Below are positions 9,562-36,127 of a DNA stretch of 38,856 nucleotides, one piece after another. The stretch's first letter is position 1. Each line of letters begins with the position of its first letter. The notes beneath the pieces are model-generated. The model was given only the letters and a program-made list of their open reading frames with translations, searched no databases and was not told the DNA's origin. Source of the DNA: Myxococcales bacterium (GTDB taxonomy: Bacteria; Myxococcota_A; Polyangia; Palsa-1104; JAEUJZ01); NCBI GenBank assembly GCA_033578775.1, contig JAVQWY010000014.1:64001-102856 (forward strand), read 5' to 3'. Position numbers and translations under genes: made by a program.

Positions 9562-11259
9562 ATGAAAATCGTTTGCGAAAACTGCGGCACCAAATACTCG
9601 ATCGCGGACGAAAAGGTCAGCGGGAAAGTATTCAAGCTGCGGTGCAAAAAGTGTAGCCATGTCATCGTGGTGCGCGGAACCACCGAGAGCGAGGCGGCGC
9701 ATCAGGAGGCGCCAGCCCCAGCTGCACCCGGGCCAGCGTCGGAGCAGGCGAGCTCAGCCGGCCCGCCCCCCGATGCCGTCTGGCATTTGGTCATCGATCG
9801 GGAGCAGGTCGGCCCGATGACCGCGGCCGAAGTTCGCAACAAATTTGCCAGCGGAGTCATCGACGGCGAGACCTACATCTGGCGCGAGGGGTTTGAGGAC
9901 TGGGTGAAGCTGTCTTCCGTCGCGGAATTTCAGGATCTCGGCGGCGCGCAGCGCGGCAACGGCCAGGAGCAGACCACGCGCCGCTCGGACAGGGCGGACC
10001 TGTTCCGCGACGCTGGTCGGGACGAGGCACCAGCGCCCGGGGCGGACCTGTTCAACCCCCCCATGACCTCGTCGCCCACGGCCGCCACCATCGTGGCCAG
10101 CAGCCCAACATCGTCTGCCAGCGCCCCCTTGCGGTCCCAGCAGCCCCCAGGGGACCTTGTGAGCGCCAGCAGCGGTCCCTCTCCGGCGGTGGACATCCGG
10201 TCGCTCACCGGAGCGCGCAACGAGAACTCCGTTCTCTTCTCGCTCAACAACCTGCAGGCGCTGGCCAGTGGGTCGAGTTCCAGCTCTTCCGGTGGGGCCG
10301 GTGCGCGACCCGGGTATGCAGACTCCCGGACCGAGGGGTCTGGCCTGATTGACATCCGCGCCATGGCAGCGCAGACGCTGTCGGCGAGCAGCAAATTCGG
10401 CACAGCCGGCAGCAAACCGGATGACCTGCCGATGGTCAACGAGGCGCCCCTGTTTTCTCCGGTGGCGCCAGCGATGTTGATGCCAATTCCCGAGCCGCCT
10501 GGCATGCCAAAGTGGGTCTGGGCGGTGGTCGGGGTCGGCGGTGTGATGTTCCTGGCGATGACGGCGGTCATCATCTGGGTGGTGCGCTCATCGCCGCCCC
10601 CAGCGCCGGCGCCACAGCCGACGGTCGTTGTGGCCAGTGGCCCTGGAGGCATGGCACAGCCAGGTTCTGCGCCGACAGGGCAGCCAGCCTCCCCCGGTCC
10701 GACCGCGACCGAGTCTGGGCCAGGCAAGCCCACTGCCAAGGACGAGGGGGCAGTGGCAGAGGCCGAGCGCAAGCGGCGTGCGCGGGAGGCGCGGGACAAG
10801 GAGCGCGAGAAGCCTTCGGCCCCTAAGGAGAAGGAGCCCATCGCCTCCACCACCCCAGTGGCTCCCGCCGTGGAGCCCCCTGCTGAGCGCCGGCAGCCCA
10901 AGCCCAAGCCCAAAGACGATCTCGATGCTCTGCTCGACAGCGCCACGGGAGGGCCGAGCGCCGCTCGTCCCAAGGTCGAGTCGGTGCGGAAGGATGCACC
11001 CGAGCAGCTCAGCATGGACGAGATCAAGAGCGTGCTCAAGGGGGTCAACGCCTCGGTGCAGTCCTGCAGTCAGGGCAACCCCGGGACGTTCATTGTCAAG
11101 ATGACCATCGGCCGCAACGGCCGCGTCACCGACGCTTCCGTCCCGGGCAAGGCCGGTGATCCCACTGCAGATTGCGTGGTGCGCGCTGTCAAGGCCGCTC
11201 GTTTCCCTGAATTCAGTGGTGATCCGCAGTCCCTGAGCTACCCCTTCATCCTGCGATAG
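9562..11259 (+). CDS. MJ0042-type zinc-ribbon / GYF(DUF4339)-like membrane protein with Pro/Ser-rich linker and TonB-C-like C-terminal domain
   Basis: N-terminus MKIVCENCGTKYSIADEKV...KLRCKKCSHVIVV has the double CxxC. WHLVIDREQVGPMTAAEVRNKFASGVIDGETYIWREGFEDWVKLSSV is GYF-like. There is one TM (VWAVVGVGGVMFLAMTAVIIWVV) and a low-complexity P/A/S region. C-terminus FIVKMTIGRNGRVTDASV...CVVRAVKAARFPEF resembles a TonB C-terminal fold. Confidence 0.65.
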   Translation: MKIVCENCGTKYSIADEKVSGKVFKLRCKKCSHVIVVRGTTESEAAHQEAPAPAAPGPASEQASSAGPPPDAVWHLVIDREQVGPMTAAEVRNKFASGVIDGETYIWREGFEDWVKLSSVAEFQDLGGAQRGNGQEQTTRRSDRADLFRDAGRDEAPAPGADLFNPPMTSSPTAATIVASSPTSSASAPLRSQQPPGDLVSASSGPSPAVDIRSLTGARNENSVLFSLNNLQALASGSSSSSSGGAGARPGYADSRTEGSGLIDIRAMAAQTLSASSKFGTAGSKPDDLPMVNEAPLFSPVAPAMLMPIPEPPGMPKWVWAVVGVGGVMFLAMTAVIIWVVRSSPPPAPAPQPTVVVASGPGGMAQPGSAPTGQPASPGPTATESGPGKPTAKDEGAVAEAERKRRAREARDKEREKPSAPKEKEPIASTTPVAPAVEPPAERRQPKPKPKDDLDALLDSATGGPSAARPKVESVRKDAPEQLSMDEIKSVLKGVNASVQSCSQGNPGTFIVKMTIGRNGRVTDASVPGKAGDPTADCVVRAVKAARFPEFSGDPQSLSYPFILR

Positions 11260-12107
11260 CGGCGCCACGGCAGGAAGTGCAGAAACCCAGGCTCACACCG
11301 GATACCGACGAGTTGTCCCTTCATCCTACGATAGCGACGCCATCCCAACCCTGCCAGTGCGAGGAGCCCCATCAGGCCTGCCCCTGCCAGCAGGAGCAGA
11401 CGATGCGGCACCAGCGAAGGCGGCGCCCGCTCGAGAAAGCGCACTGTGATCGAGCGGTCCGACAGCGACGACGACGGCGGACCATAGAAACGAAACGTCG
11501 TGATGCGCTGCGGCTGCTCCGGTCGCGGTGCTCCCTGACAGGACTCGATCAGCTCTATACCCGGCCCCGGCTCGACGAGGATTTCGATCTCACCTGCCGG
11601 CGCAAGCCCGACGCGATCTTCATAGCGAAGCTCCTGCACCTGTCCAGATGCCACGCGCACCGAGGCAGATGTATCGACCGAAAGCGCGGCCGGGGCGACG
11701 GCATCGCCGGCAAGCCCGATCGTGGGCTCTGCAAAATGGAGCGCCACGGGCTGGCCGTTTGCCTCCAGCCGGAGTCCGGCCCTGGCCTCCCCTAGGAGCT
11801 GCCGCGCCAGGGCAGCCCCCTCGGCCTCACTGAGGCGTCCGTCGCCATCGCGATCGGCCCCCCGGCGCAGGTTGAACGCCGGGATGTCACCCACCATGAT
11901 GGTATAGGTGAGCCGCACCTGCCCACGTGGCATGAGCGCCAGCCTGCTGTATCGGTTCACCACGGAGAGGGTAAACTGCGGATGCCCTGGTGCCGGAGCC
12001 GCACCGCCAAGAATAACCAGGGCCATGGTCAGGGCAGCGCGCCATGAACAGGGCACCATGCCGCGCAGGTAACACGAGGACTGCCCCATGGCAAGCACCC
12101 GGTGCAT
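11238..12107 (-). CDS. secreted EF-hand (DxDxDG) protein with C-terminal TM anchor; probable start at 12057
   Basis: Signal peptide MVPCSWRAALTMALVILGGAAPAPG. EF-hand loop DRDGDGRLSEAE. C-terminal TM LLLLAGAGLMGLLALAGLGW followed by an RRYRRMKG tail that appears twice because of the DNA repeat. The 3' end overlaps the convergent zinc-ribbon gene by 22 bp. Confidence 0.45.
   Translation of the reverse strand: MHRVLAMGQSSCYLRGMVPCSWRAALTMALVILGGAAPAPGHPQFTLSVVNRYSRLALMPRGQVRLTYTIMVGDIPAFNLRRGADRDGDGRLSEAEGAALARQLLGEARAGLRLEANGQPVALHFAEPTIGLAGDAVAPAALSVDTSASVRVASGQVQELRYEDRVGLAPAGEIEILVEPGPGIELIESCQGAPRPEQPQRITTFRFYGPPSSSLSDRSITVRFLERAPPSLVPHRLLLLAGAGLMGLLALAGLGWRRYRRMKGQLVGIRCEPGFLHFLPWRRYRRMKG
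11241..11346. repeat. imperfect ~30-bp direct repeat (period 76 bp) spanning the stop codon of the zinc-ribbon gene
   Basis: ccccttcatcctgcgatagcggcgccacgg (11241-11270) versus tcccttcatcctacgatagcgacgccatcc (11317-11346). Confidence 0.7.
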
Positions 12108-19477: not shown

Positions 19478-20605
19478 ATGCATCCACTATACTGCCAGAC
19501 GAAGACCGTGCGTCCTTATGCCCGTCGGAAAACCACGCCGCAGCTCGTTGTAGTCGCGGCGCTCCTGGCGCTGCTGGTACACGGGCTTGTGCTGCTCCTG
19601 CTGGTGGGCAGCGGGGCCCTGCAGACGCTGCCGCTTGGACGCACCGTGGTGGCCGAGCGCACCGAGGGGTTGCTGCGCTTGGACGAGCCACCCATCGAGA
19701 TCGAGTGGCTGGTGGATCAGCTGGACCGGCCCCAGCAGGAAACCCCTGAGGAGCAGCGCCGCCGACAGGAGGAGGAAACCACGCGCCCCGAGGGACAGGT
19801 GGTGGACATCGCCCGCCCGGCCCTGGAGCAGCGTCCCGACCAGGCGCGCTTTCTGGCCGAGTACGACTCGACGGTCGAGCGGGAGACGCGAGGACCCCCA
19901 GGGCGGTCCCAGGCCGGCGCCCTCCAGCCCGCTGCCCGGCCCACCCCTCCGCCCCGCCCAGCTCGTCCTGGCCGCGCTGGCCCCCCCGGGCCGCTGGCGC
20001 TCCGGTCGGCCTCGTCGCCCCCCGCGGCTGAGAGCAGCCAGGACCTGGCCCCCGATGGCACGGCCCGGTGGCAGCCCGGCGGCCCCCATCGGACGCCCTC
20101 CCAGCCCGGCGGTGGGCAACCCGCCGCCCCTGCCACGCCCAACTTGTTGGCCACCCCCGAGCTCCTGGAGCGGGTCCTGGGCCAGGGAGCCGGCTCGCCC
20201 GACTACCTGAAGGACATCGACGACGGCGAGTACACCGCCCTAAACGCCAAGCGGTGGAAGTTCGCCTCGTTTTTCAACCGGCTCAAGCAGGCCGTGGCGG
20301 ACGAGTGGCACCCGGACACCGTCTACCTGCGCCATGATCCGTCGGGCAACATCTACGGCATCAAAGATCGCATCACGGTGCTGCGCGTGCACCTGAAGCC
20401 CGACGGCCGCATCGCCGCCATCCAGATCCTGCGCCCTTCGGGCGTCGAGTTTCTCGACGATGAGGCCGTGGGTGCCTTCAAGCGTGCCCAGCCCTTCCCC
20501 AACCCCCCCCAGCAGCTGGTCGAGCCCGACGGGTTGATCCGGTTCAATTTTGCCTTCATCTTTGAGTTGTCGGGTCGGACCTCATTCAAGGTGTTTCGCT
20601 ACTGA
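19478..20605 (+). CDS. TonB-family energy transducer
   Basis: N-terminal TM (LVVVAALLALLVHGLVLLLLVG), Pro-rich spacer, and C-terminal TonB domain (YGIKDRITVLRVHLKPDGRIAAIQILRPSGVEFLDDEAVGAFKRAQPFPNPP). The ORF tool's upstream GTG at 19448 is also possible. Confidence 0.65.
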   Translation: MHPLYCQTKTVRPYARRKTTPQLVVVAALLALLVHGLVLLLLVGSGALQTLPLGRTVVAERTEGLLRLDEPPIEIEWLVDQLDRPQQETPEEQRRRQEEETTRPEGQVVDIARPALEQRPDQARFLAEYDSTVERETRGPPGRSQAGALQPAARPTPPPRPARPGRAGPPGPLALRSASSPPAAESSQDLAPDGTARWQPGGPHRTPSQPGGGQPAAPATPNLLATPELLERVLGQGAGSPDYLKDIDDGEYTALNAKRWKFASFFNRLKQAVADEWHPDTVYLRHDPSGNIYGIKDRITVLRVHLKPDGRIAAIQILRPSGVEFLDDEAVGAFKRAQPFPNPPQQLVEPDGLIRFNFAFIFELSGRTSFKVFRY

Positions 20606-20690
20606 GGCCTCCCAGCGCGGCAACCGCGTCCTCGTAGCGCTCGACTGCCAGGACCATTCAAGGTGTTTCGCTACTGAGGCCTCCCAGCGC
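20583..20690. repeat. perfect 36-bp direct repeat x2 separated by a 36-bp unique segment, covering the stops of two convergent genes
   Basis: cattcaaggtgtttcgctactgaggcctcccagcgc at 20583-20618 and at 20655-20690. Confidence 0.9.
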
Positions 20691-22312: not shown

Positions 22313-23893
22313 TCAGAAGCGGAACTGCACCGCCAGGCGCGCCTCGCGCTCCAACGTGGTGGGGGCGTGCAGGTCGGTGCCGAGGCGGCGCTCCATGAAG
22401 AAGGCGGTCACGGTGCCGATGCTGCGATAAAAGTACAGGTGCACCGCGGCGCGCCACTGCAGCTCGTCCAGCTGGCGCTGCATCTCTGAGCTTAGCATGG
22501 CCGGCGGGTGGTCGAACCCCGAGGCGACGAACTGGCCCACGTCCATGCCCAGCATGAGCCACTTGGACACCGCCAGCACACCGACCTGGATGTTGTAGGC
22601 CAGCCCCCAGGAGCCGAACTCAATCTCGCGCTTGCCATAGGTTTCGGCCTGGATGAGCAGGCGCCGGTAGCGCAGCACGGCGAACAGGTTGGCTGCGGGG
22701 AAGCGCTCCAGCGGCCGCTGCTCCCACTTGACGCCCAGGGCTAGGGCCACGGCCAGCGGCACCGGCGTGTACAGCAGCGGGCTGTCCCATCGGCTGAAGA
22801 AGCCAACCACGTTCCAGTGGATCTGAGCGGCCACCTGGTAGGCGAAGTTGCTGTTGTCCTCGGTCAGGAAGGTGCCGCCGACGTTGCCGGTAAAGCGCCC
22901 GGTGCCGGCCGAGGCCAGGGCACGGTACAGCAGGCGCCCGCCCCGGTCGATGGGCCCGCCAAACTCCACAGCCACGCTGTAGGGCTGCTGGAAGGCGTTG
23001 ACCAGATAGAAGGGCGGGTCGAGCAGAAGCTGCTTGTAGATCGAGATGGCCAAGATGGACGACAGGCCGCCGGTGCCGCTGCTGACGTTGGCGTAGTGGC
23101 CGCGCTTGCCCAGCGGCACCTGAAACATGGCAAAGGTCAGCCGCGGCGTGCGCTCGGCGCGCACGTTGAGCAGGAAGAACGAGTTGCGGATAAACGGGAT
23201 GGGGCCGAGCACGCGCAGCTGCAGGCGCGAAAAGCGGGCGTCGAAGGTGTTGTCCTGCGCCTGGTAGGCGACCTCGGTGCGTGCCACCACGGAGAAGGAG
23301 AAGTTGGGCTGCCCCTGGCAGACGGAGATGGAGGGGTCGAAGCGGCAGCCAAAGTCCTGGCAGTCGGTGCGGCCGTCGCCGTCGTTGTCGATGCCATCGG
23401 CGCACAGCTCGTCGCTGCGTTCGCCGTCCTTGTCGTTGCCGCGGCCGATGAGATCTTCTACGGACATGCCTGGGCCCAGCTCGGGCACCGGCTCCGACGC
23501 CATGGGCTGCCCCGTGCCCTGAGCGCCGCCGGTTGCCAGCGTGGCCTGGGTGCGCTGATAGGAGCCCTGGCACACAGAGATACCGGGCACCTGACAGTCC
23601 GGGTCATCGCAGTCCATCTGGCCGTCGCCATCGTTGTCGATCCAGTCGCTGCATAGGGAATTGGTGGACTCGGGCCGCCCGTCGGGACGGCAGTGGGGCG
23701 AGTCGGCGCAGTCGGCATCGCCGCAGTCATAGACAGTATCGCCATCGTTGTCGATGCCATCGTTGCACTCGGTCTCGCGCGCCGGCTCGGCCGCAGCGAC
23801 AGGTCTGGCCGGGCACAGCAGCACCGCCAGCAGCGCAGACAAGACGACCATGTCCCCTCGGGCCGTGGGTCGCATCGGTCGCATGGCTCGCAT
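22313..23893 (-). CDS. outer-membrane beta-barrel protein with N-terminal Cys-flanked DxDxDG repeats
   Basis: Signal peptide. Four copies of C.DGIDNDGDG..DC.D.DC. The C-terminal ~350 aa have beta-barrel texture and end in the Phe-terminal AVQFRF. Confidence 0.6.
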   Translation of the reverse strand: MRAMRPMRPTARGDMVVLSALLAVLLCPARPVAAAEPARETECNDGIDNDGDTVYDCGDADCADSPHCRPDGRPESTNSLCSDWIDNDGDGQMDCDDPDCQVPGISVCQGSYQRTQATLATGGAQGTGQPMASEPVPELGPGMSVEDLIGRGNDKDGERSDELCADGIDNDGDGRTDCQDFGCRFDPSISVCQGQPNFSFSVVARTEVAYQAQDNTFDARFSRLQLRVLGPIPFIRNSFFLLNVRAERTPRLTFAMFQVPLGKRGHYANVSSGTGGLSSILAISIYKQLLLDPPFYLVNAFQQPYSVAVEFGGPIDRGGRLLYRALASAGTGRFTGNVGGTFLTEDNSNFAYQVAAQIHWNVVGFFSRWDSPLLYTPVPLAVALALGVKWEQRPLERFPAANLFAVLRYRRLLIQAETYGKREIEFGSWGLAYNIQVGVLAVSKWLMLGMDVGQFVASGFDHPPAMLSSEMQRQLDELQWRAAVHLYFYRSIGTVTAFFMERRLGTDLHAPTTLEREARLAVQFRF

Positions 23894-23899
23894 CCTTGG

Positions 23900-25123
23900 C
23901 TACTCACATACGCGACGGCCTGGGCACACCGTCACCAGCGGGTTGTGGCTGCAATCCCAGTCGCGGCAATCTATGAACCCGTCCAGGTCGTTGTCGAGCC
24001 CGTCGGAGCAGCGGGCATTGGCGGCGGCCGCATCGGGGCCGAGGCTCTCTTGGCAGGCCTGGCGCACATCGATGGTGGCGGCCTGGCTGCAGGCCCGGTC
24101 CTCGCAGTCGATGTAGCCGTTGCCATCGTTGTCGAGGCCGTCGGTACAGCGAGCGAAGGTATTCTCCAGGCGGGCAGCGCAGTAGGCCATCAGGTCGGGG
24201 TCGCCTGAGCGCGAGCAGGAAAAGTCGGCGCAGTCGGTGTAGCCGTTGCGGTCGTTGTCCACCCCATCGCTGCAGCGCGCCAGCGTGTTTTCCAGCCGCT
24301 CGGCGCAGTAGGCACGCACGGCCGCGTCAGGGGAGGTGGCGCAGGCGCGGTCGGCGCAGTCGGTGTAGCCGTTGCGGTCGTTGTCCACCCCATCGCTGCA
24401 GCGCGCCAGCGTGTTTTCTGGCAACAGGTCAGCGCACAGGGCCTGGATGGCCGGGTCGGCCGAGCGGGCGCAGTCGAAGTCGCGGCAGTCGGTGTAGCCG
24501 TCGCCGTCGTTGTCGAGGCCGTCGGCGCAGCGCTCGGGGGTGTTTTCTGGCATGCGGCAGCGCTCCAGGCGCACGCAGTCGGGGTCGCGGCAGTCGATGT
24601 GGCCGTCGCCGTCGTTGTCCAGTCCGTCGCTGCAGCGGGCGTCGGTAAGTTCAGTGCAGACGGTGACAAAGGGGCTCTGGCGGCAGCCGAAGTCGCGGCA
24701 GTCGGTGTAGCCGTTGCGGTCGTTGTCCACCCCATCGCTGCAGCGCGCATCGGTATTTTCGATGATGCAGCAGGTCTCGGGGATGGCGCGGCAGCTGGCC
24801 TCGCCGCAGTCCCAGTTGCCATCGCCGTCGTTGTCCACCTGGTCGGTGCAGGTGGCGTAGGTGGCCTCGCGACGGGGGGGTTCAGGGATGGGGGGAACCA
24901 TCTCGCCGCAGAAGGTGGAGGTGAAGCGGCAGTCGGGGTCGCGGCAGTCGACCTGGCCATCGGCGTCGTTGTCGAGGCCGTCGCTGCAGTTTTGATCCTC
25001 GGTCTCGTAGCCCAGCACCGGATAGGGCGGGCGCTCAAAGCAGCCCAGCGCCAGCAGGGCGGCAGCAGGCAGTACGGCCACCAGGCGGCCGGGACGCGGC
25101 GAATCGTCAGATGGGCGGCGCAT
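23900..25123 (-). CDS. lipoprotein composed of ~9 tandem ~41-aa Cys-flanked DxDxDG (Ca-binding-loop-like) repeats
   Basis: Lipobox LLALGC. Repeats of ENT[LF]ARCSDGVDNDRNGYTDCAD..C....P.....YCA. The underlying DNA repeats are near-identical. Confidence 0.65.
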   Translation of the reverse strand: MRRPSDDSPRPGRLVAVLPAAALLALGCFERPPYPVLGYETEDQNCSDGLDNDADGQVDCRDPDCRFTSTFCGEMVPPIPEPPRREATYATCTDQVDNDGDGNWDCGEASCRAIPETCCIIENTDARCSDGVDNDRNGYTDCRDFGCRQSPFVTVCTELTDARCSDGLDNDGDGHIDCRDPDCVRLERCRMPENTPERCADGLDNDGDGYTDCRDFDCARSADPAIQALCADLLPENTLARCSDGVDNDRNGYTDCADRACATSPDAAVRAYCAERLENTLARCSDGVDNDRNGYTDCADFSCSRSGDPDLMAYCAARLENTFARCTDGLDNDGNGYIDCEDRACSQAATIDVRQACQESLGPDAAAANARCSDGLDNDLDGFIDCRDWDCSHNPLVTVCPGRRVCE

Positions 25124-28573: not shown

Positions 28574-29125
28574 TCAGCGAACCAGGTCGGAGATGACGAC
28601 CTTGGTGAACAGGTTGCTGGTGCGCGCCGTGCCCCCCGTGCCGCGGGCGGCGTCCATGGTTCGGATGATCACCTCGTAGGGGACCTCGTTGTCCGGCAAG
28701 AGGATCACCGTGTCTGATGCAGGGTAGCGGTCCTTGATGGCGGCCAGACGGCGGGTCAGCTCCTCGTAGGGCAGGTCCCAGGGTGGCGCGCCAGCCTCGG
28801 TGCGGCGGGGCAGCTCAAAGCGCAGCGCGGCGGTCTGCTCACGGCTGAGGCGCTCATTGGCAGCACTGCCTAGGATGCCGCGCCTGGTGATCTGCAGCGT
28901 GACCAGGACCTGGCTTGGCGGCGGCTCCTGCCCACCGGCCGACTCGGAGCGGGTCGGTACCGACGCCGGCAGCAGCGCCACCACCGCCGCCCCGACAGAG
29001 GCCAGCAGGAAAAACAAGATGTTGCTCATCACGTCCATCAGCGGCGTCAGGTTCAGGTCCACACCACCGACCTCGGCCTCTGTGCCGAAGAGGGAACGGC
29101 GCGAGCCGAAGACCGAGCCCTGCAT
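28574..29125 (-). CDS. ExbD/TolR-family biopolymer transport protein (second copy)
   Basis: LNLTPLMDVMSNILFFLLASVG. The start ATG overlaps the ExbB stop (ATGA). The ORF tool's N-terminal extension was rejected. Confidence 0.8.
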   Translation of the reverse strand: MQGSVFGSRRSLFGTEAEVGGVDLNLTPLMDVMSNILFFLLASVGAAVVALLPASVPTRSESAGGQEPPPSQVLVTLQITRRGILGSAANERLSREQTAALRFELPRRTEAGAPPWDLPYEELTRRLAAIKDRYPASDTVILLPDNEVPYEVIIRTMDAARGTGGTARTSNLFTKVVISDLVR

Positions 29126-29770
29126 CAGGCGGTGGCTCCGCGGCGCTGGGCCCCGGTCCGCTGCGAGGCCAGGTGGTCGACCAAGCGGGTGGTCGCCTGC
29201 TCCATGGCGGTGAGGATCCGGGACTGCCGGCCAGAAATGATCATATACGCAAACACCGTGCCCACGGCGACAGCGAGGCCGAAGAAGGTGTTGTAGAAGG
29301 CGATGGCGATGCCCTTGGCGAGCATCGCCTGCCGCGCGGCCGTGCTCTCGGTGTTGCCGATGCCTTGGAAGGAGACGATGAGGCCGTGGATGGTGCCCAG
29401 CAGGCCGCACAGGGTGGCCAGGTTGGCCAGGTGGGGCAGGTAGGCCGTGAGCGCCCGGATGGTGGGCAGCTCCACCGCTGCCTGCGCCTCGACAGCACGG
29501 CGGATGTCCTTCTCGCTGCGGTCGGCTCGCACCAGCGCCGACTTAAGGATGCGCATCAGCGGGTGGCGGTTCATGCTACAGAGCTGGAGCGCCTGGGGGT
29601 AGCTGCCGGACTCGCTCAGGTCCAGGACCTGCTTGAGGTACGCCGGGCCGGGGAGGCGGTACTTGACCCAGAGCGTGTAGAGACGCTGCAGAATGATCGC
29701 AACGGCGCCAATGGAGATGCCCAGGGTGGCGAACATGAAGGGTCCACCCGCTAGCAGAAGGTCGAACATC
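29125..29770 (-). CDS. MotA/TolQ/ExbB proton-channel protein
   Basis: Three TM segments. CGLLGTIHGLIVSFQGIGNTESTAARQAMLAKGIAIAFYNTFFGLAVAV. AGGAG RBS. The ORF tool's extension to 30042 was rejected. Confidence 0.85.
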
Positions 29771-29933
29771 GGTGCTCCTTGTGCGTGCTGGCCCATCATA
29801 CTGGCCAGGGGCCGTAAGGTCCAGGCCACCAACCGGCGGGTGGCGCTTGGGCCGGGACGAGGGTCTGCGCCCTTTGCCCACATAGGGGCGAGCTGGACCC
29901 ATGGGGGGGCGGGGCGGCGGGAAGGGCTTGCGC

Positions 29934-30156
29934 ATCCAGGCCCCAGAAGAGTGCAGGGGCTGACGCAAAGGAGCGAATGCAGGCTTGAGTAGCGATAAAC
30001 CGGGTGAATCCAGGCCCCAGAAGAGTGCAGGGGCTGACGCAAGGGAACCTGGGCCTGGCGGAGGAGACTAGGGCTTGCGCAGGAACTTAGCTCCCGTGGC
30101 CTGTCTCCCGGAGTAACAGGGACCTGGGCCTGGCGGAGGAGACTAGGGCTTGCGCA
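29934..30156. repeat. two adjacent repeat-spacer-repeat structures (35-bp perfect repeats A and B, each x2, spacers 39-40 bp)
   Basis: Repeat A (atccaggccccagaagagtgcaggggctgacgcaa) lies at 29934-29968 and 30008-30042. Repeat B (acctgggcctggcggaggagactagggcttgcgca) lies at 30047-30081 and 30122-30156. B copy 2 contains the sterol methyltransferase stop codon. Confidence 0.9.
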
Positions 30157-31168
30157 CCAGAAAGTAGAACATCGGCGTGAAGATGCCGGTTCGCCCCCCC
30201 TCGACGAGGTAGCCCGCCCCGCGCTGCAGGAACGAGCTGACCGCGGTGGCGCCCTTGGGTGCCACGCCCACGGCCTCCAGGCTGCGGACCATCTGGTGGG
30301 TCAGCCATCGGCCCACGGGGCTGGAGCGGAACCCGCTGGGGGTGTACCAGGGGGCTGCCAGGGGCAGGTACCAGGGCGTCTCCGGGTCGGCGGTCAAGGC
30401 CCGGTCCTCGCTTTCCAGCACCTCGAAGCCGACCGCGCGCAGCGCTTCCAGCACCTCCGGCACCGTCGCCAGCTCGGGCAGCGCGTTGCCTTCCTCGATG
30501 CCCTGCCGGATCTCCCGATGGCGGGGGTTTTGCGAGTCGTACCGGTCGGTCACGCACCACTCGTAGGCGGCAAAGTGCGCGCCCGGCTTGAGCACGCGGA
30601 AAACCTCGCCGTAGATTTGCCGCTTGTCCGGCGCGTGGCAGGTGGCCTCGATGGCATAGGCGGCATCGAAGGTGCCATCTGGCACCGGAACGGACAGAAA
30701 GTCGCACTTGAGGAGCTCGCACAGGTGGCTCAGGCGGGCCGCCTCGTTGTGTTTGCGGGCCCGTGCGATCTGGTAGTCGTTGTTGTTCAGGCCGACGATG
30801 GTGGCGCCGCTAAAGCGGGCAATGGAGCGCATCGGCCCCCCCACCCCGCAGCCGAAATCGGCCACCCTCATGCCCGGCCGCAAGCCCAGGCGCAGCGCCA
30901 AAAAGTGCTCGTAGCGCGCGATGGAAGCAGCAAATGCCTCGCCGCGGAAGCGCGGCGCAAAGTGAAAGGACTGTCCCCAGCCGAACTCATAGAAATCCGT
31001 GACAAGATCGTAAAAGTTGTTGACCAGCGTCGCATAGGACTGTTTGCGACGTTCCGTGCTGCCGCCCCGGGAACGGTCATACTGGGCGGTGTAGTTGTCC
31101 ACGGTGGCCTGAACCTCGTCCCGGGCGAGGGATGTCTGACAGATGTCGGTGACCGATGGTGCGTCCAT
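30143..31168 (-). CDS. sterol 24-C-methyltransferase (ERG6/SMT1 family, SAM-dependent)
   Basis: Near-colinear match to ERG6 hallmark blocks: YEFGWGQSFHFAPRFRGEAFAASIARYEHFLA, FGCGVGGP, VGLNNNDYQIARA, YAIEATCHAP, VLKPGAHFAAYEWCVTDRYDSQNPRHREI, GGRTGIFTPMFYFLVRKP. Start at MDAPSV; the upstream ORF extension was rejected. Confidence 0.85.
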   Translation of the reverse strand: MDAPSVTDICQTSLARDEVQATVDNYTAQYDRSRGGSTERRKQSYATLVNNFYDLVTDFYEFGWGQSFHFAPRFRGEAFAASIARYEHFLALRLGLRPGMRVADFGCGVGGPMRSIARFSGATIVGLNNNDYQIARARKHNEAARLSHLCELLKCDFLSVPVPDGTFDAAYAIEATCHAPDKRQIYGEVFRVLKPGAHFAAYEWCVTDRYDSQNPRHREIRQGIEEGNALPELATVPEVLEALRAVGFEVLESEDRALTADPETPWYLPLAAPWYTPSGFRSSPVGRWLTHQMVRSLEAVGVAPKGATAVSSFLQRGAGYLVEGGRTGIFTPMFYFLVRKP

Positions 31169-31314
31169 GGCTGAGCCCTGTTGCTGTGTGCTGGTAGGAA
31201 ACCCGGAACCCGCGCGGGTGTCAATGTGCGATTCCGCACGGGCGGGAACCTGTTGACCCCAGCCCGCGCTGGAGGCAGCATGAGGCAATTTGTTTGATCC
31301 TGCCGGAGCATGCC

Positions 31315-32652
31315 ATGAGCGGAGAGCCTGAGCAGCCTGTTCCTGTCCCTGTCTATGACGTTTGCGTTGTCGGTGCCGGCCCGAGCGGTGCCACGTGTGC
31401 ATACTATCTGGCGCAGCGCGGCAAGCGGGTTTTGTTGCTGGAGAAAAAGACCTTTCCGCGCGACAAGCTGTGCGGCGATGCCGTCTGCACCAACGCCCAG
31501 ATCCACCTGGACCGCATGGGCGTGCTTCGGGAGCTAGAGGAGGAGGGCACCGGTCACTGGGCTGCAGTGGGGGGCCTGGTCAGCCCGCGGCGCATCGGGT
31601 TCATTGGCAACTCGGCCAAGCAAAATGGCCGCCCGCTGGTGATGGCCGTCAAGCGCATGATCCTCGACGAGAAGATTGCGCGCGCGGCGCAGCGGGCCGG
31701 GGCCCTTCTGGTGGAAAACACCACCGTGACCGGTGCCTCTCTCTCGCGGGCCGAAGGGGTGTGGACGGTCCAGGCAACCCGCAACGGGGCGGCCGTGTCC
31801 TACCGGGCGCGGGCGCTGGTGGCGGCAGATGGGGCGCTGTCGCGGCTCACCCAGGCCCTTGGCATCCCGACGCCGCCGCCAGACAGCGTGTGCAGCCGGG
31901 CCTACATCAAGGCCGGCACGCATCAGTTCGACATGGACGGCGTGGTCTTTTATGAGCTGGACATGGTGCCCGGCTACTGCGCCCTGTTCCGCGAGGCTGG
32001 CGGCGACGTCAACTACTGCGTCTATATCATCCCGGGCGGGCGCTGCTCCATTGACGATCTTTACGAGATGCACCACCGCATCCTCCGCGACAACCCGTAT
32101 GTGCGTCGGGCGGTCGGTCCCCACGCGGTCATCGACAAGATGAAGGGGGCACCGCTGCGCCTGGGTGGCATCCGCAAAAGCTACCACGACCACCTGCTCA
32201 TTGTCGGCGATGCGGCCGGACACATTGACCCGCTCACCGGCGAGGGCATCCATCATGCCATGGACGGTGGGTACCTGGCCGCCGAGGTGCTGTGCGAGGC
32301 CCTGGCAGTCGGCGACCTCAGCGAGCGGTTCCTGCGCCGCTATCAGGACCGCTGGATGCGCGCCTTTGGCCGCGATTTCTTCTGGTCCAAGAAGATGGCC
32401 CAGGTCTTTGCGAAGGCGCCGATTCTGGTCGATGCCAGCGCCGCGGTCATGCAGCGCAAGGGCGCGGACTCGCTGCTGGAATGGGGCCGTGTCATGACCG
32501 GCGTGGCCCCCAAGCGCTACTTTCTGCGGCCGGAGGTGGCGCTGCCCCTTCTTGTGGAGACGGGACGCCAGGTCGTCCGGCAAGCCTTGGGGAAGATCGT
32601 TCCAGATGTCAGGGTCTCTCTCGATGGAGTGGTTCGGCCCTGGATGCCCTAG
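31315..32652 (+). CDS. geranylgeranyl-reductase-family FAD-dependent oxidoreductase
   Basis: YDVCVVGAGPSGATCAYYLAQRGKRVLLLEKK is the Rossmann GxGxxG. LCGDAV. LIVGDAAGHIDPLTGEGIHHAM is GGR/ChlP-like. Alternative start at 31294. Confidence 0.8.
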   Translation: MSGEPEQPVPVPVYDVCVVGAGPSGATCAYYLAQRGKRVLLLEKKTFPRDKLCGDAVCTNAQIHLDRMGVLRELEEEGTGHWAAVGGLVSPRRIGFIGNSAKQNGRPLVMAVKRMILDEKIARAAQRAGALLVENTTVTGASLSRAEGVWTVQATRNGAAVSYRARALVAADGALSRLTQALGIPTPPPDSVCSRAYIKAGTHQFDMDGVVFYELDMVPGYCALFREAGGDVNYCVYIIPGGRCSIDDLYEMHHRILRDNPYVRRAVGPHAVIDKMKGAPLRLGGIRKSYHDHLLIVGDAAGHIDPLTGEGIHHAMDGGYLAAEVLCEALAVGDLSERFLRRYQDRWMRAFGRDFFWSKKMAQVFAKAPILVDASAAVMQRKGADSLLEWGRVMTGVAPKRYFLRPEVALPLLVETGRQVVRQALGKIVPDVRVSLDGVVRPWMP

Positions 32653-32662
32653 TGGTGCTCCC

Positions 32663-33061
32663 TTCGGGGCGGGGGCCCCGGTTCGCGGGGCAGGGGGGCA
32701 GCGGACTCAGGTGGGCCGGGAAAATATCCCAAGGCGCTTGAGAGGCGAGGGAGAGCACAAGGCTCGAGCCGGTGTCAATCAGGTTTGCCCCCGGGAAAAT
32801 ATCCCAAGGCGCTTGAGAGGCGAGGGCCCCGGTCCGCGGGGCAGGGGGGCAGCGGACCCGAGCCGGCTGGCGCCGCAGGGCTCTCCGGCTGGGGGCGGAG
32901 CAGGCGCGTCGGGAAGGACACGGGGCCCTGCGCCCGGGCACCCGCTGGGGCTGCGGCCGTGTCATCATCCTGCCATATCCTGCCATCGGCGGGCGGAGAT
33001 GCGCGCTACAGGAGATCCCTCGCCCCCCGCTGGGGCTGCGGCCGTGTCATCATCCTGCCAT
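32663..33061. repeat. complex nested direct-repeat region filling the intergenic space
   Basis: C is a 34-bp repeat with 1 mismatch at 32673-32706 and 32824-32857. D is a 36-bp perfect repeat at 32716-32751 and 32791-32826. E is a 36-bp perfect repeat at 32941-32976 and 33026-33061, overlapping the downstream ATG. Confidence 0.9.
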
Positions 33062-35096: not shown

Positions 35097-36025
35097 CCCC
35101 CCAGCTGGGCCTGGTCTGCCTGTCGGCCGGACCCGAGGTCCGCTTCCGCACCACCACCCGTGCCTTCCTGCACCGCCACCGCCCCTGCGAGGCCCAGCAG
35201 CTGCTCCGGGCACTCTACCGCGACAACCTCGCCCGCCTGGAACGCGCCTTCGCCTTCTGCGCCTCGCTCGGCATCTCGCTCTACCGCATGCCCTCCAGCC
35301 TCTTTCCCTTCGCCGACGCCGAGGGCGCCCCCCTGCTCGAAGAGCTCGCCGAGCCGCTGGCCGCCCTGGGCCGCCAGGCCCGCCAGCAAGGCCTCCGTCT
35401 GCTGCTCCACCCCGACCAGTTCGTCGTCCTCAGCTCCGACTCGGCCGCCACGGTGCGCAACGCCCACCTCATGCTCGCCATGCAGGGACGCCTGATGGAC
35501 CTGCTCGACCAGCCCCGCTCCCCCTGGGCCGCCATCAACATCCACGGCGGCAAGGCCGGACGCCTGGCCGCCCTGGTCCGCGAGATCCGCTCCCTGCCCG
35601 ACGCCGTGCGCACCCGCCTCACCCTGGAAAACGACGAGCGCGCCTACGGCAGCGCAGAGATCCTAGAAGCCTGCCAGCAGGCCGGCGTGCCCATGGTCTT
35701 CGACGCCCACCACCACCTTGTTCACGACCGCCTGTCCTCCTACGACGACCCGAGCATCGCCCACTGGCTGGCTGCCGCCCGCCAAAGCTGGCCCGACCCC
35801 TCCCTGCAGGTGGTCCACATCTCCAACGGCCGCGACCACCTGCAGGACGCCCGCCACAGCGACTGGATCACCCACATGCCCACCGCCTACCGCCACGCCC
35901 CCTGGATCGAGGTGGAGGCCAAAGCCAAAGACGAGGCCATCCGCCGCCTCCGCCAACGCTGGCGCCCCCTGCGAGCCCGACCCTCCGGCCCCCGCGCGCC
36001 CGGTGCCCAGCAAGCAAACCGCTAG
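35093..36025 (+). CDS. uvsE: UV DNA damage endonuclease
   Basis: LGLVCLS, SLGISLYRMPSSLFPF, LLLHPDQFVVLSS, NIHGG, LTLENDER and HIS of the UVDE/UvsE family. ATGA overlap with the ECF sigma stop. Confidence 0.85.
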   Translation: MTPQLGLVCLSAGPEVRFRTTTRAFLHRHRPCEAQQLLRALYRDNLARLERAFAFCASLGISLYRMPSSLFPFADAEGAPLLEELAEPLAALGRQARQQGLRLLLHPDQFVVLSSDSAATVRNAHLMLAMQGRLMDLLDQPRSPWAAINIHGGKAGRLAALVREIRSLPDAVRTRLTLENDERAYGSAEILEACQQAGVPMVFDAHHHLVHDRLSSYDDPSIAHWLAAARQSWPDPSLQVVHISNGRDHLQDARHSDWITHMPTAYRHAPWIEVEAKAKDEAIRRLRQRWRPLRARPSGPRAPGAQQANR

Positions 36026-36127
36026 GGCCCCCCGCCAGCCGCCCCCCCGCACGCCGCTCCCCCCAAGATGCCCTGCGAGCCCGACCCTCCGGCCCCCGAC
36101 GCGCCCGGTGCCCAGCAAGCAAACCGC
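35967..36127. repeat. 56/57-bp direct repeat (1 indel) with 104-bp period; copy 1 is the last 18 codons of uvsE
   Basis: ccctgcgagcccgaccctccggcccccg(a)cgcgcccggtgcccagcaagcaaaccgc at 35967-36022 and 36071-36127. Confidence 0.85.

Follow-up and report, generated by a model that had tools for sequence, protein, structure and literature searches.

The intergenic region between a sterol 24-C-methyltransferase (SMT) gene and exbB carries two adjacent units, A-s1-A and B-s2-B, and both are real: in each, a host segment of 35-36 bases has been duplicated around an insertion of about 36-40 bases. Across the window, by which we mean the whole 38,856-nt stretch of DNA analysed here, the same geometry is also found at 20583, 32716, 32941, 32668 and 11231, the last two being older occurrences. 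This recurrence, which the earlier note on the SMT-exbB units had missed, points to a genome-wide process and not to a local feature. Three of the eight inserts are fragments of 23S rRNA, and both s1 and s2 are among them. With a probability of roughly 60%, we read the two units and their sister events as off-target full-site integrations by a type III-like Cas1-Cas2 module.

Two duplication-insertion units between the SMT and exbB genes

Our re-scan of the sequence agrees with the earlier description of two mutually unrelated perfect 35-nt pairs that enclose inserts of 39-40 nt. Repeat A has a period of 74 and can be extended to 39 nt at the cost of one mismatch, while repeat B has a period of 75 and grows 5′ to 38 nt, also with one mismatch (Table 1). 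The perfect parts of A2 and B1 are separated by 4 nt, GGGA (30043-30046). With up to three mismatches tolerated, A and B each occur in exactly two copies window-wide, and neither was encountered in 100 shuffles.

SMT and exbB are both encoded on the minus strand, which places the units downstream of the SMT stop codon and upstream of the exbB start codon (ATG 29769). The SMT protein is identical (100%) to a protein from an NCBI MAG labelled 'Myxococcales bacterium', and its C-terminus reads FTPMFYFLVRKP before the stop. This stop codon, CTA on the plus strand (30143-30145), falls inside B2, so that B1 repeats the final four codons and the stop together with the 21 nt that follow it. The duplication of the SMT 3′ end that had been noticed at first reading is thus borne out.

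The last 11 nt of repeat B, GGGCTTGCGCA, occur three times in the window against an expectation of 0.06. Once both young events are excised, the third copy, at 29924, has its next copy 73 nt away, and an older event may have left it behind. We considered and rejected this copy as the remnant of an older 36-nt duplication, as the comparison shows clear agreement at just 12 of 36 positions and no more than chance agreement at the others; its position does not match the 36-nt ruler.

Table 1. Features of the window discussed in the text, in order of position (nt; blank where no strand is assigned).
Feature	Position	Strand	Description
Event E (older, probable)	11231..11343		Period 75, 28/36 identical
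Event C	20583-20618 / 20655-20690		36-nt duplication, period 72, 36-nt insert 20619-20654
exbB	29125..29769	-	214 aa, MotA_ExbB; then two exbD genes (Pfam PF01618, PF02472 on Logan contig L083)
Sigma-70-like promoter match	29795..29823	-	Sole match in the SMT-exbB spacer, on the exbB side of the repeat units
Third copy of GGGCTTGCGCA	29924..29934		Directly precedes A1
A copy 1 (A1)	29934..29968		Duplicated target segment, 35 nt; to 29972 with 1 mismatch
Insert s1	29969..30007	+	39 nt; 29973-30007 is a 23S rRNA fragment, sense on +, 23S (LSU) ~1284-1318 of reference, 32/35 identical
A copy 2 (A2)	30008..30042		To 30046 with 1 mismatch; GGA overlap with extended B1
B copy 1 (B1)	30047..30081		Duplicated target segment, 35 nt; non-functional SMT end (VRKP, stop)
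Insert s2	30082..30121	-	40 nt; 30082-30112 is a 23S rRNA fragment, sense on minus, LSU ~966-996, 24/31 identical
B copy 2 (B2)	30122..30156		Holds the functional SMT stop codon and last 4 codons
SMT gene, P0001	30143..31168	-	Sterol 24-C-methyltransferase, 341 aa; Pfam Sterol_MT_C and methyltransferase domains
Event P (older)	32668-32703 / 32819-32854		36-nt duplication, 2 mismatches
Event P insert, rRNA match	32704-32744	+	Sense on +, LSU ~1543-1583, 34/41 identical
Event D7	32716-32751 / 32791-32826		36-nt duplication, period 75, 39-nt insert 32752-32790
Event D8	32941-32976 / 33026-33061		36-nt duplication, period 85, 49-nt insert

The same geometry recurs across the window

A window-wide repeat scan, in which young pairs are those with perfect copies, returned five young events of one geometry in the 39 kb, each consisting of a 35-36-nt duplication and a 36-49-nt insert, together with two or more older events that share this geometry and have decayed. 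The upper insert length of 49 nt belongs to D8, whose insert is resolved by TRF into a 10-nt slippage copy of ATCCTGCCAT plus 39 nt, and it becomes 39 nt when that slippage copy is set aside. At six sites the duplications measure 36, 35, 35, 36 and 36 nt (perfect) and 36 nt (event P, with two mismatches), and the inserts measure 36, 39, 40, 39, 39 (+10) and 40 nt. The overall density is seven to eight events in 39 kb.

Each event duplicates a different sequence, with A, B, C, D7, D8 and P being mutually unrelated, and the duplicated segments have no convincing shared motif that would mimic a leader-repeat junction. The pentamer CAGCG stands at one end of three of the six duplicated segments, an enrichment that is marginal after multiple-testing correction. 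The inserts likewise have no relation to one another, no terminal repeats and no local match.

The events also differ in age. Event P, which has a period of 76 once the nested D7 is taken out, surrounds a 40-nt 23S rRNA fragment that starts at 32704 and is interrupted by the young D7. Most of the segment duplicated by D7 comes from the insert of event P, which is older and rRNA-derived, so that events nest within one another and recur at loci already hit. The pair at 11231..11343, event E, is a probable further older event of the same geometry.

This geometry is rare in comparison sequence. Markov shuffles of the window contained no pairs of at least 18 nt, and 1.48 Mb drawn from 80 other genomes contained no pairs with the same geometry. 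When the scan was loosened to admit pairs with at least 27/36 identical positions, the window gave six matches, whereas 2 Mb of control DNA gave 0.7 per 39 kb. Elsewhere in the window, a 56+48-nt duplication at 35967-36127 departs from the 36-nt ruler.

Independent assemblies and an empty site

Evidence that the events exist in the sequenced organisms comes from Logan, in which public sequencing runs are assembled as de Bruijn graphs with k=31. Identity to the window is 99.9% for contig L081 (SRR15826901) and 99.6% for contig L082 (SRR25904939). Approached from the SMT side, both stop at 30127, after precisely k-1 = 30 nt of B2. This is the break that is expected if the reads hold B after two left contexts, and it applies to B, the exbB-side contig L083 ending at 29871, short of A1. 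The earlier note had raised the prospect that the repeats would collapse to single copies on re-assembly, which this break of the two k=31 assemblies within B2 does not support. Besides the end at 29871, a Logan contig end was seen at 32627.

The polarity of the events is indicated by a third run. Logan contig L165 (SRR27730024) carries an ortholog of the aminotransferase, 87% identical, and its intergenic region measures 129 nt compared with 407 nt in the window. In L165, one copy of the D8 36-mer abuts the ATG without the 49-nt insert, and the contig has neither the D7 nor the P duplication nor the rRNA piece. With the three events removed (76+75+85 nt), the window aligns end to end with L165. 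This empty site indicates that P, D7 and D8, which lie 2.5 kb from A and B and are the three events to which the comparison applies, are derived insertions with target duplication. Taken with the perfect copies of the young pairs, the empty site for these sister events upholds the earlier suggestion that the insertions are recent. An orthologous SMT-exbB spacer was found neither in GTDB representatives (best SMT 68%) nor in JGI metagenomes (best 62%).

Inserts derived from 23S rRNA

The five young inserts were searched against plasmids, and the window was then compared with an rRNA operon by Smith-Waterman alignment with controls; the reference was an alphaproteobacterial operon, and variable rRNA regions lie beyond its reach. 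The plasmid search gave 144 matches to s1 on rRNA-bearing replicons, all of them in unannotated stretches, and one of these stretches lies inside an Rfam 23S gene (2673 bits), with the s1 match at E=9e-8. None of 1500 random window 40-mers equalled the scores of s1, s2 or the P insert, and one of 1500 shuffles equalled the score of s2, whose mismatches to 23S cluster in a variable helix. In ~2.04 Mb of control DNA, there were no rRNA-like fragments at E<=1e-3.

The boundaries of the rRNA homology coincide with those of the inserts. The homology stops exactly at the junctions for s1 (30007/30008) and s2 (30082/30081), and the last base of the P match is the first base of P2. Two of the 23S fragments are in the sense orientation on the plus strand and one is antisense.

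For five of the eight inserts, no source was found among plasmids, phages, plasmid-borne rRNA and a small tRNA set. The five young inserts had no match among INPHARED phages, and exact 20-mers from the C and D7 inserts had none in IMG/VR. The unassigned inserts and the duplicated segments gave no signal against the tRNA set (15 sequences), and searches of rep_A and of the E and D9 inserts against plasmid-borne rRNA returned no match, with the positive control alone matching. Rfam returned nothing for the whole window at the gathering threshold and noise for the event regions at permissive E-values; short fragments from the interior of an rRNA are beyond what covariance models can score.

Placement at gene boundaries

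All events sit in intergenic DNA or at gene boundaries, and the duplications at B, C, D8 and E preserve stop or start codons. Event C holds two stops, that of the TonB-like gene on the plus strand in copy 1 (20603-05) and that of the PLP-decarboxylase-like gene on the minus strand in copy 2 (20658-60). In a single-copy ancestor, these convergent genes would have had a 20-nt overlap of their 3′ ends; with the duplication, both remain intact. The last two bases of the second D8 copy are the AT of the aminotransferase start codon, ATG (33060), and the segment duplicated in event E holds the stop TAG (11257-59) of a GYF/zinc-ribbon gene (9562..11259). Between P0125 and MCS6914880.1, its counterpart in a second MAG of the same species, 457/458 positions are identical, and the single difference falls within the event-C duplication. 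Placement of this kind is that of a long target-site duplication under purifying selection, and it is unlike the placement expected of assembly errors.

Discussion

In CRISPR adaptation, Cas1-Cas2 carries out two strand transfers one repeat-length apart, and repair of the gaps duplicates the repeat. Type III repeats are typically 35-37 nt long, and type III systems are common in myxobacteria, some of them with RT-Cas1. To our knowledge, Cas1-Cas2 is the sole enzyme that produces duplications of ~28-37 bp flanking spacer-length inserts. The fixed 35-36-bp ruler, the unrelated 36-40-nt inserts, the rRNA bias and the presence of both orientations therefore favour the Cas1-Cas2 reading, and the insert lengths, which fall within the published type III-A spacer range, fit a type III-like geometry. 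Among the features by which off-target Cas1-Cas2 integration can be recognised, a fixed duplication length, the length of the insert, an insert unrelated to its target and the source of the insert are present, and an empty site in a relative is seen for the sister events P, D7 and D8. From this footprint we infer the responsible enzyme, which may be an RT-Cas1 fusion. Within the window we found no cas1, cas2 or other cas gene, no RT, no transposase and no CRISPR array, and a Pfam scan of 20 large window ORFs identified housekeeping genes only.

Under the Cas1-Cas2 reading, a DNA piece of ~36-40 nt would be joined to the chromosome through two staggered strand transfers 35-36 bp apart, the Cas1-Cas2 molecular ruler setting the distance between its two attacks. 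Gap repair would then copy the intervening host segment and leave the arrangement 'X - insert - X'. The prespacers would be largely of 23S rRNA or rDNA origin, either of which fits the data equally well. The events that survive would be those that spare genes, either because they are intergenic or because a stop or start is duplicated and one copy completes the gene. The units themselves are most likely neutral scars, with no function in exbB or SMT implied.

Several other explanations would also place short direct repeats around an unrelated middle. A unit copied by replication slippage or in tandem, with a middle part that later diverged, would accord with the older ~37-bp periodicity that the earlier note had suspected. 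This view can draw on the weak likeness of s1 to A in one motif (GARTGCAGG..TGA) and on the genuine 10-nt slippage duplication at 32967-32986. However, TRF finds no 37- or 74-nt array at 29934-30156, a tandem duplication yields XX and not X-Y-X, and the identical outer copies enclose unrelated middles that are pieces of 23S rRNA and not diverged copies of the repeats. The rRNA identity of s1 and s2 refutes this explanation, to which we attach next to no credence; as a class, a tandem repeat was rejected as well, there being no head-to-tail array around these rRNA-derived middle segments. It is also very improbable that the units are functional mini-CRISPR arrays, or a regulatory repeat of the exbB-exbD-exbD operon, that are processed or bound by a regulator. 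Their layout superficially resembles that of minimal CRISPR arrays, and they lie upstream of the exbB operon, whose promoter region they had been thought to occupy. Yet A, B and the other repeats are unrelated, which argues against any single processing enzyme or regulator, and the units come without a leader, cas genes or an Rfam match. In folding, the region does not surpass shuffled sequence (z = +1.8), and no terminator was predicted between SMT and exbB. The only sigma-70-like site lies between the repeats and the ATG, downstream of the units, which leaves the proposed special link to the exbB promoter unsupported, and the sister events lie between unrelated genes. A bona fide CRISPR array was rejected for the same want of leader, cas genes and related repeats, each repeat being present only twice.

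An artefact of assembly or library preparation, in which mis-joined k-mer paths or chimeric molecules create spurious 35-36-nt overlaps with foreign filler, deserves attention in that the window belongs to a metagenome-assembled genome and the fixed 35-36-nt length could mirror a k-mer size (e.g. k=37). We nevertheless consider it highly implausible. The two assemblies that break 30 nt into B2 come from other runs and a different assembler, with k=31 and a few SNPs; the events are confined to gene boundaries and intergenic DNA, with reading frames preserved; the older copies have diverged (2/36 mismatches in P and 8/36 in E) and are nested; ~1.5-2 Mb of contigs from other MAGs are free of such pairs; and L165 offers an empty site. 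A more serious competitor, though still an unlikely one, is a Cas-independent, undescribed machinery that inserts short rRNA-derived cDNA or DNA with a ~36-bp staggered cut, for which a Cas1-like solo integrase, a casposase relative or a reverse-transcriptase-coupled repair pathway would be candidates. Such machinery would account for the footprints just as well: the geometry and the rRNA origin demand a fixed ruler and rRNA substrates and not Cas1-Cas2 specifically, the window holds no cas genes, and the density of events is unprecedented for CRISPR off-targeting. Against such machinery stands the agreement of the 35-36-bp duplication, the 32-42-nt inserts, the rRNA bias and the free orientation with published type III adaptation. 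Casposase duplications are 14-15 bp long, and we know of no ruler-type, CRISPR-independent integrase of such a kind. We therefore retain off-target integration by a type III-like Cas1-Cas2 module as the preferred reading.

This preferred reading can be set against what has been described for type III-A adaptation. New spacers are 32-42 bp long with a peak at 36 in S. thermophilus (PMC8860593) and 35.5 +/- 1 bp in S. epidermidis (PMC8860600). In type III-A adaptation, rRNA/tRNA loci are the dominant chromosomal source and supply at least 30% of chromosomal spacers, and there is no PAM or orientation preference (PMC8860593; PMC8860600). The window events are similar in spacer size, in the lack of orientation preference and in their rRNA source. 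They differ in lying outside any array, whereas the spacers in the type III-A studies entered a CRISPR array. S. epidermidis also sampled 23S less than 16S/5S (PMC8860600), unlike the window, in which all three identified pieces are 23S. Acquisition of spacers from RNA by RT-Cas1 has been reported for the type III-B system of M. mediterranea and the III-D system of V. vulnificus (PMC11014452, PMC6821258). Such acquisition would explain both the bias towards abundant RNA and the occurrence of either orientation, and DNA uptake from rDNA explains the window data equally well.

Off-target integration by Cas1-Cas2 has been observed in vivo in E. coli (type I-E; Nivala, Shipman & Church 2018, Nat Microbiol 3:310) and in vitro in P. 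furiosus (PMC6698737). In the E. coli work, as later papers describe it, Cas1-Cas2 was over-expressed and the duplications were 28 bp, and papers that cite it describe its natural evidence as circumstantial only and drawn from two species. As described there, its 'neo-CRISPR' units resemble the window events in having a spacer-length insert, a repeat-length duplication of an arbitrary target and repeat sequences specific to each site, and possibly in the repeated use of one locus. The window events stand apart in their 35-36-bp duplications, in being natural, in numbering seven to eight within 39 kb, in their differing ages and in the rRNA origin of some inserts. Their density is far above reported natural off-target integration, and the literature that we searched did not describe off-target integrations that are natural, dense, multi-age and rRNA-derived. 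Casposons and transposons also produce direct target duplications through staggered integration and gap repair. Those duplications measure 2-15 bp, in contrast to 35-36 bp in the window, and such elements are conserved and self-encoding with terminal repeats, whereas the window inserts are unrelated 36-40-nt pieces. A transposable element or MITE was accordingly rejected, the inserts being unrelated and without termini and the duplication far too long.

Until now, the integration of spacers off target has essentially been known from laboratory work with over-expressed Cas1-Cas2. In the window, apparent natural events of several ages occur in one genome, and the ruler of the integrase (35-36 bp), the size of its substrates (36-40 nt) and its preference for rRNA can be read from the scars. 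Such events bear on the frequency of off-target integration in nature, on its cost and on the possible seeding of new CRISPR arrays. For genome annotation, units of this type could be mistaken for tiny CRISPR arrays or for regulatory repeats.

What the events mean for this organism depends on the machinery that its genome encodes. If a matching type III or RT-Cas1 module is encoded, the rRNA bias of type III adaptation in nature would become testable from sequence. The selective filter on off-target hits, visible in survivors that lie at gene ends and keep stop and start codons, would become testable too, as would array genesis, through the nesting of events and their return to loci already hit. 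Were cas1 absent from the genome, the scars would imply a ruler-type integrase of a new class. It is a possible, if doubtful, extension that a hyperactive or poorly targeted integrase, whether Cas1-Cas2/RT-Cas1 or a Cas-independent relative, peppered the chromosome with rRNA-derived 'spacers'. Should this extension prove true, the observed density would correspond to hundreds to thousands of events genome-wide, and the genome would hold a natural record of the de novo birth of CRISPR arrays and of the genomic cost of adaptation.

Duplicated segments and their ends

The 36-nt events of this region each consist of an insert of ~36-40 nt flanked by a 35-36-nt direct duplication of host DNA. One of these is event C. 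NCBI has another MAG from this species, with a PLP-decarboxylase identical at 457 of 458 residues (MCS6914880.1). The sole difference, L453V, falls within the 36-mer duplicated in event C (copy 2, 20655-20690). In event D8, the first copy meets its insert at a short tandem duplication of ATCCTGCCAT (Table), and as a result the insert is 49 nt instead of 39 nt. This additional duplication may have arisen by slippage, either during integration or later.

With regard to the ends of the duplicated segments, CAGCG lies within 3 nt of the boundary, on one strand, in three of six (20583, 32668 and 32941), which has a nominal p of 6e-4, but some 5-mer does equally well in 16 of 300 random sets. A weak target preference is possible.

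Table. Coordinates of additional features in the window
Feature	Position	Strand	Description
Repeat-rich ORFs	22313-25123	minus	Two large ORFs of at least 13 degenerate ~108-138-nt repeats
FAD-dependent oxidoreductase	31294-32652		Divergent partner of the sterol 24-C-methyltransferase gene (SMT); pair spans 30143-32652
10-nt tandem duplication	32967-32986		Perfect, ATCCTGCCAT x2; D8 copy 1/insert junction
56-nt direct repeat	35967-36022 / 36071-36127		One indel and one mismatch between copies

Other repeats in the window

The 56-nt repeat is unlike the 36-nt events in geometry, as its copies are 48 nt apart with a period of 104-105. Its first copy is the coding end of a UvdE-like gene, whose TAG stop follows at 36023-25, and its 48-nt insert has no rRNA or plasmid match. 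The repeats at 22313-25123 code for motifs rich in Cys and Asp (…DNDGD…C…), which resemble thrombospondin type 3 calcium-binding repeats. Of the two ORFs, the one scanned (22313-23893) has no Pfam match at E<=1e-5. These repeats also cause the break of a Logan contig, assembled from another sequencing run, at 24719.

The SMT gene and the SMT-exbB spacer

In this genome of an uncultured member of the Myxococcales, SMT forms a divergent pair with the oxidoreductase, and its nearest relatives are just 68-69% identical. Repeat B ends in GGGCTTGCGCA, which corresponds to the last SMT codons, and a third copy is present at 29924-29934, immediately ahead of the first copy of repeat A. Once the two young events are taken out, this copy lies 73 nt from the next, though just 12 nt are in common, too few to demonstrate that a 36-nt duplication of greater age occurred here. 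In addition, the exbB start (…CCGATGTTCGACCTTCTG, 29755-29772) and the SMT end (…CCGATGTTCTACTTTCTG, 30158-30175) are identical at 16 of 18 nt, encoding PMFDLL and PMFYFL, respectively. This likeness is probably due to chance, though unexpected within 700 nt.

Two Logan contig ends, at 29871 (L083) and 32627 (L081), match no repeat in the window. These ends could simply reflect coverage; alternatively, they could mark strain-specific extra events or structural polymorphism beside hypervariable intergenic regions.
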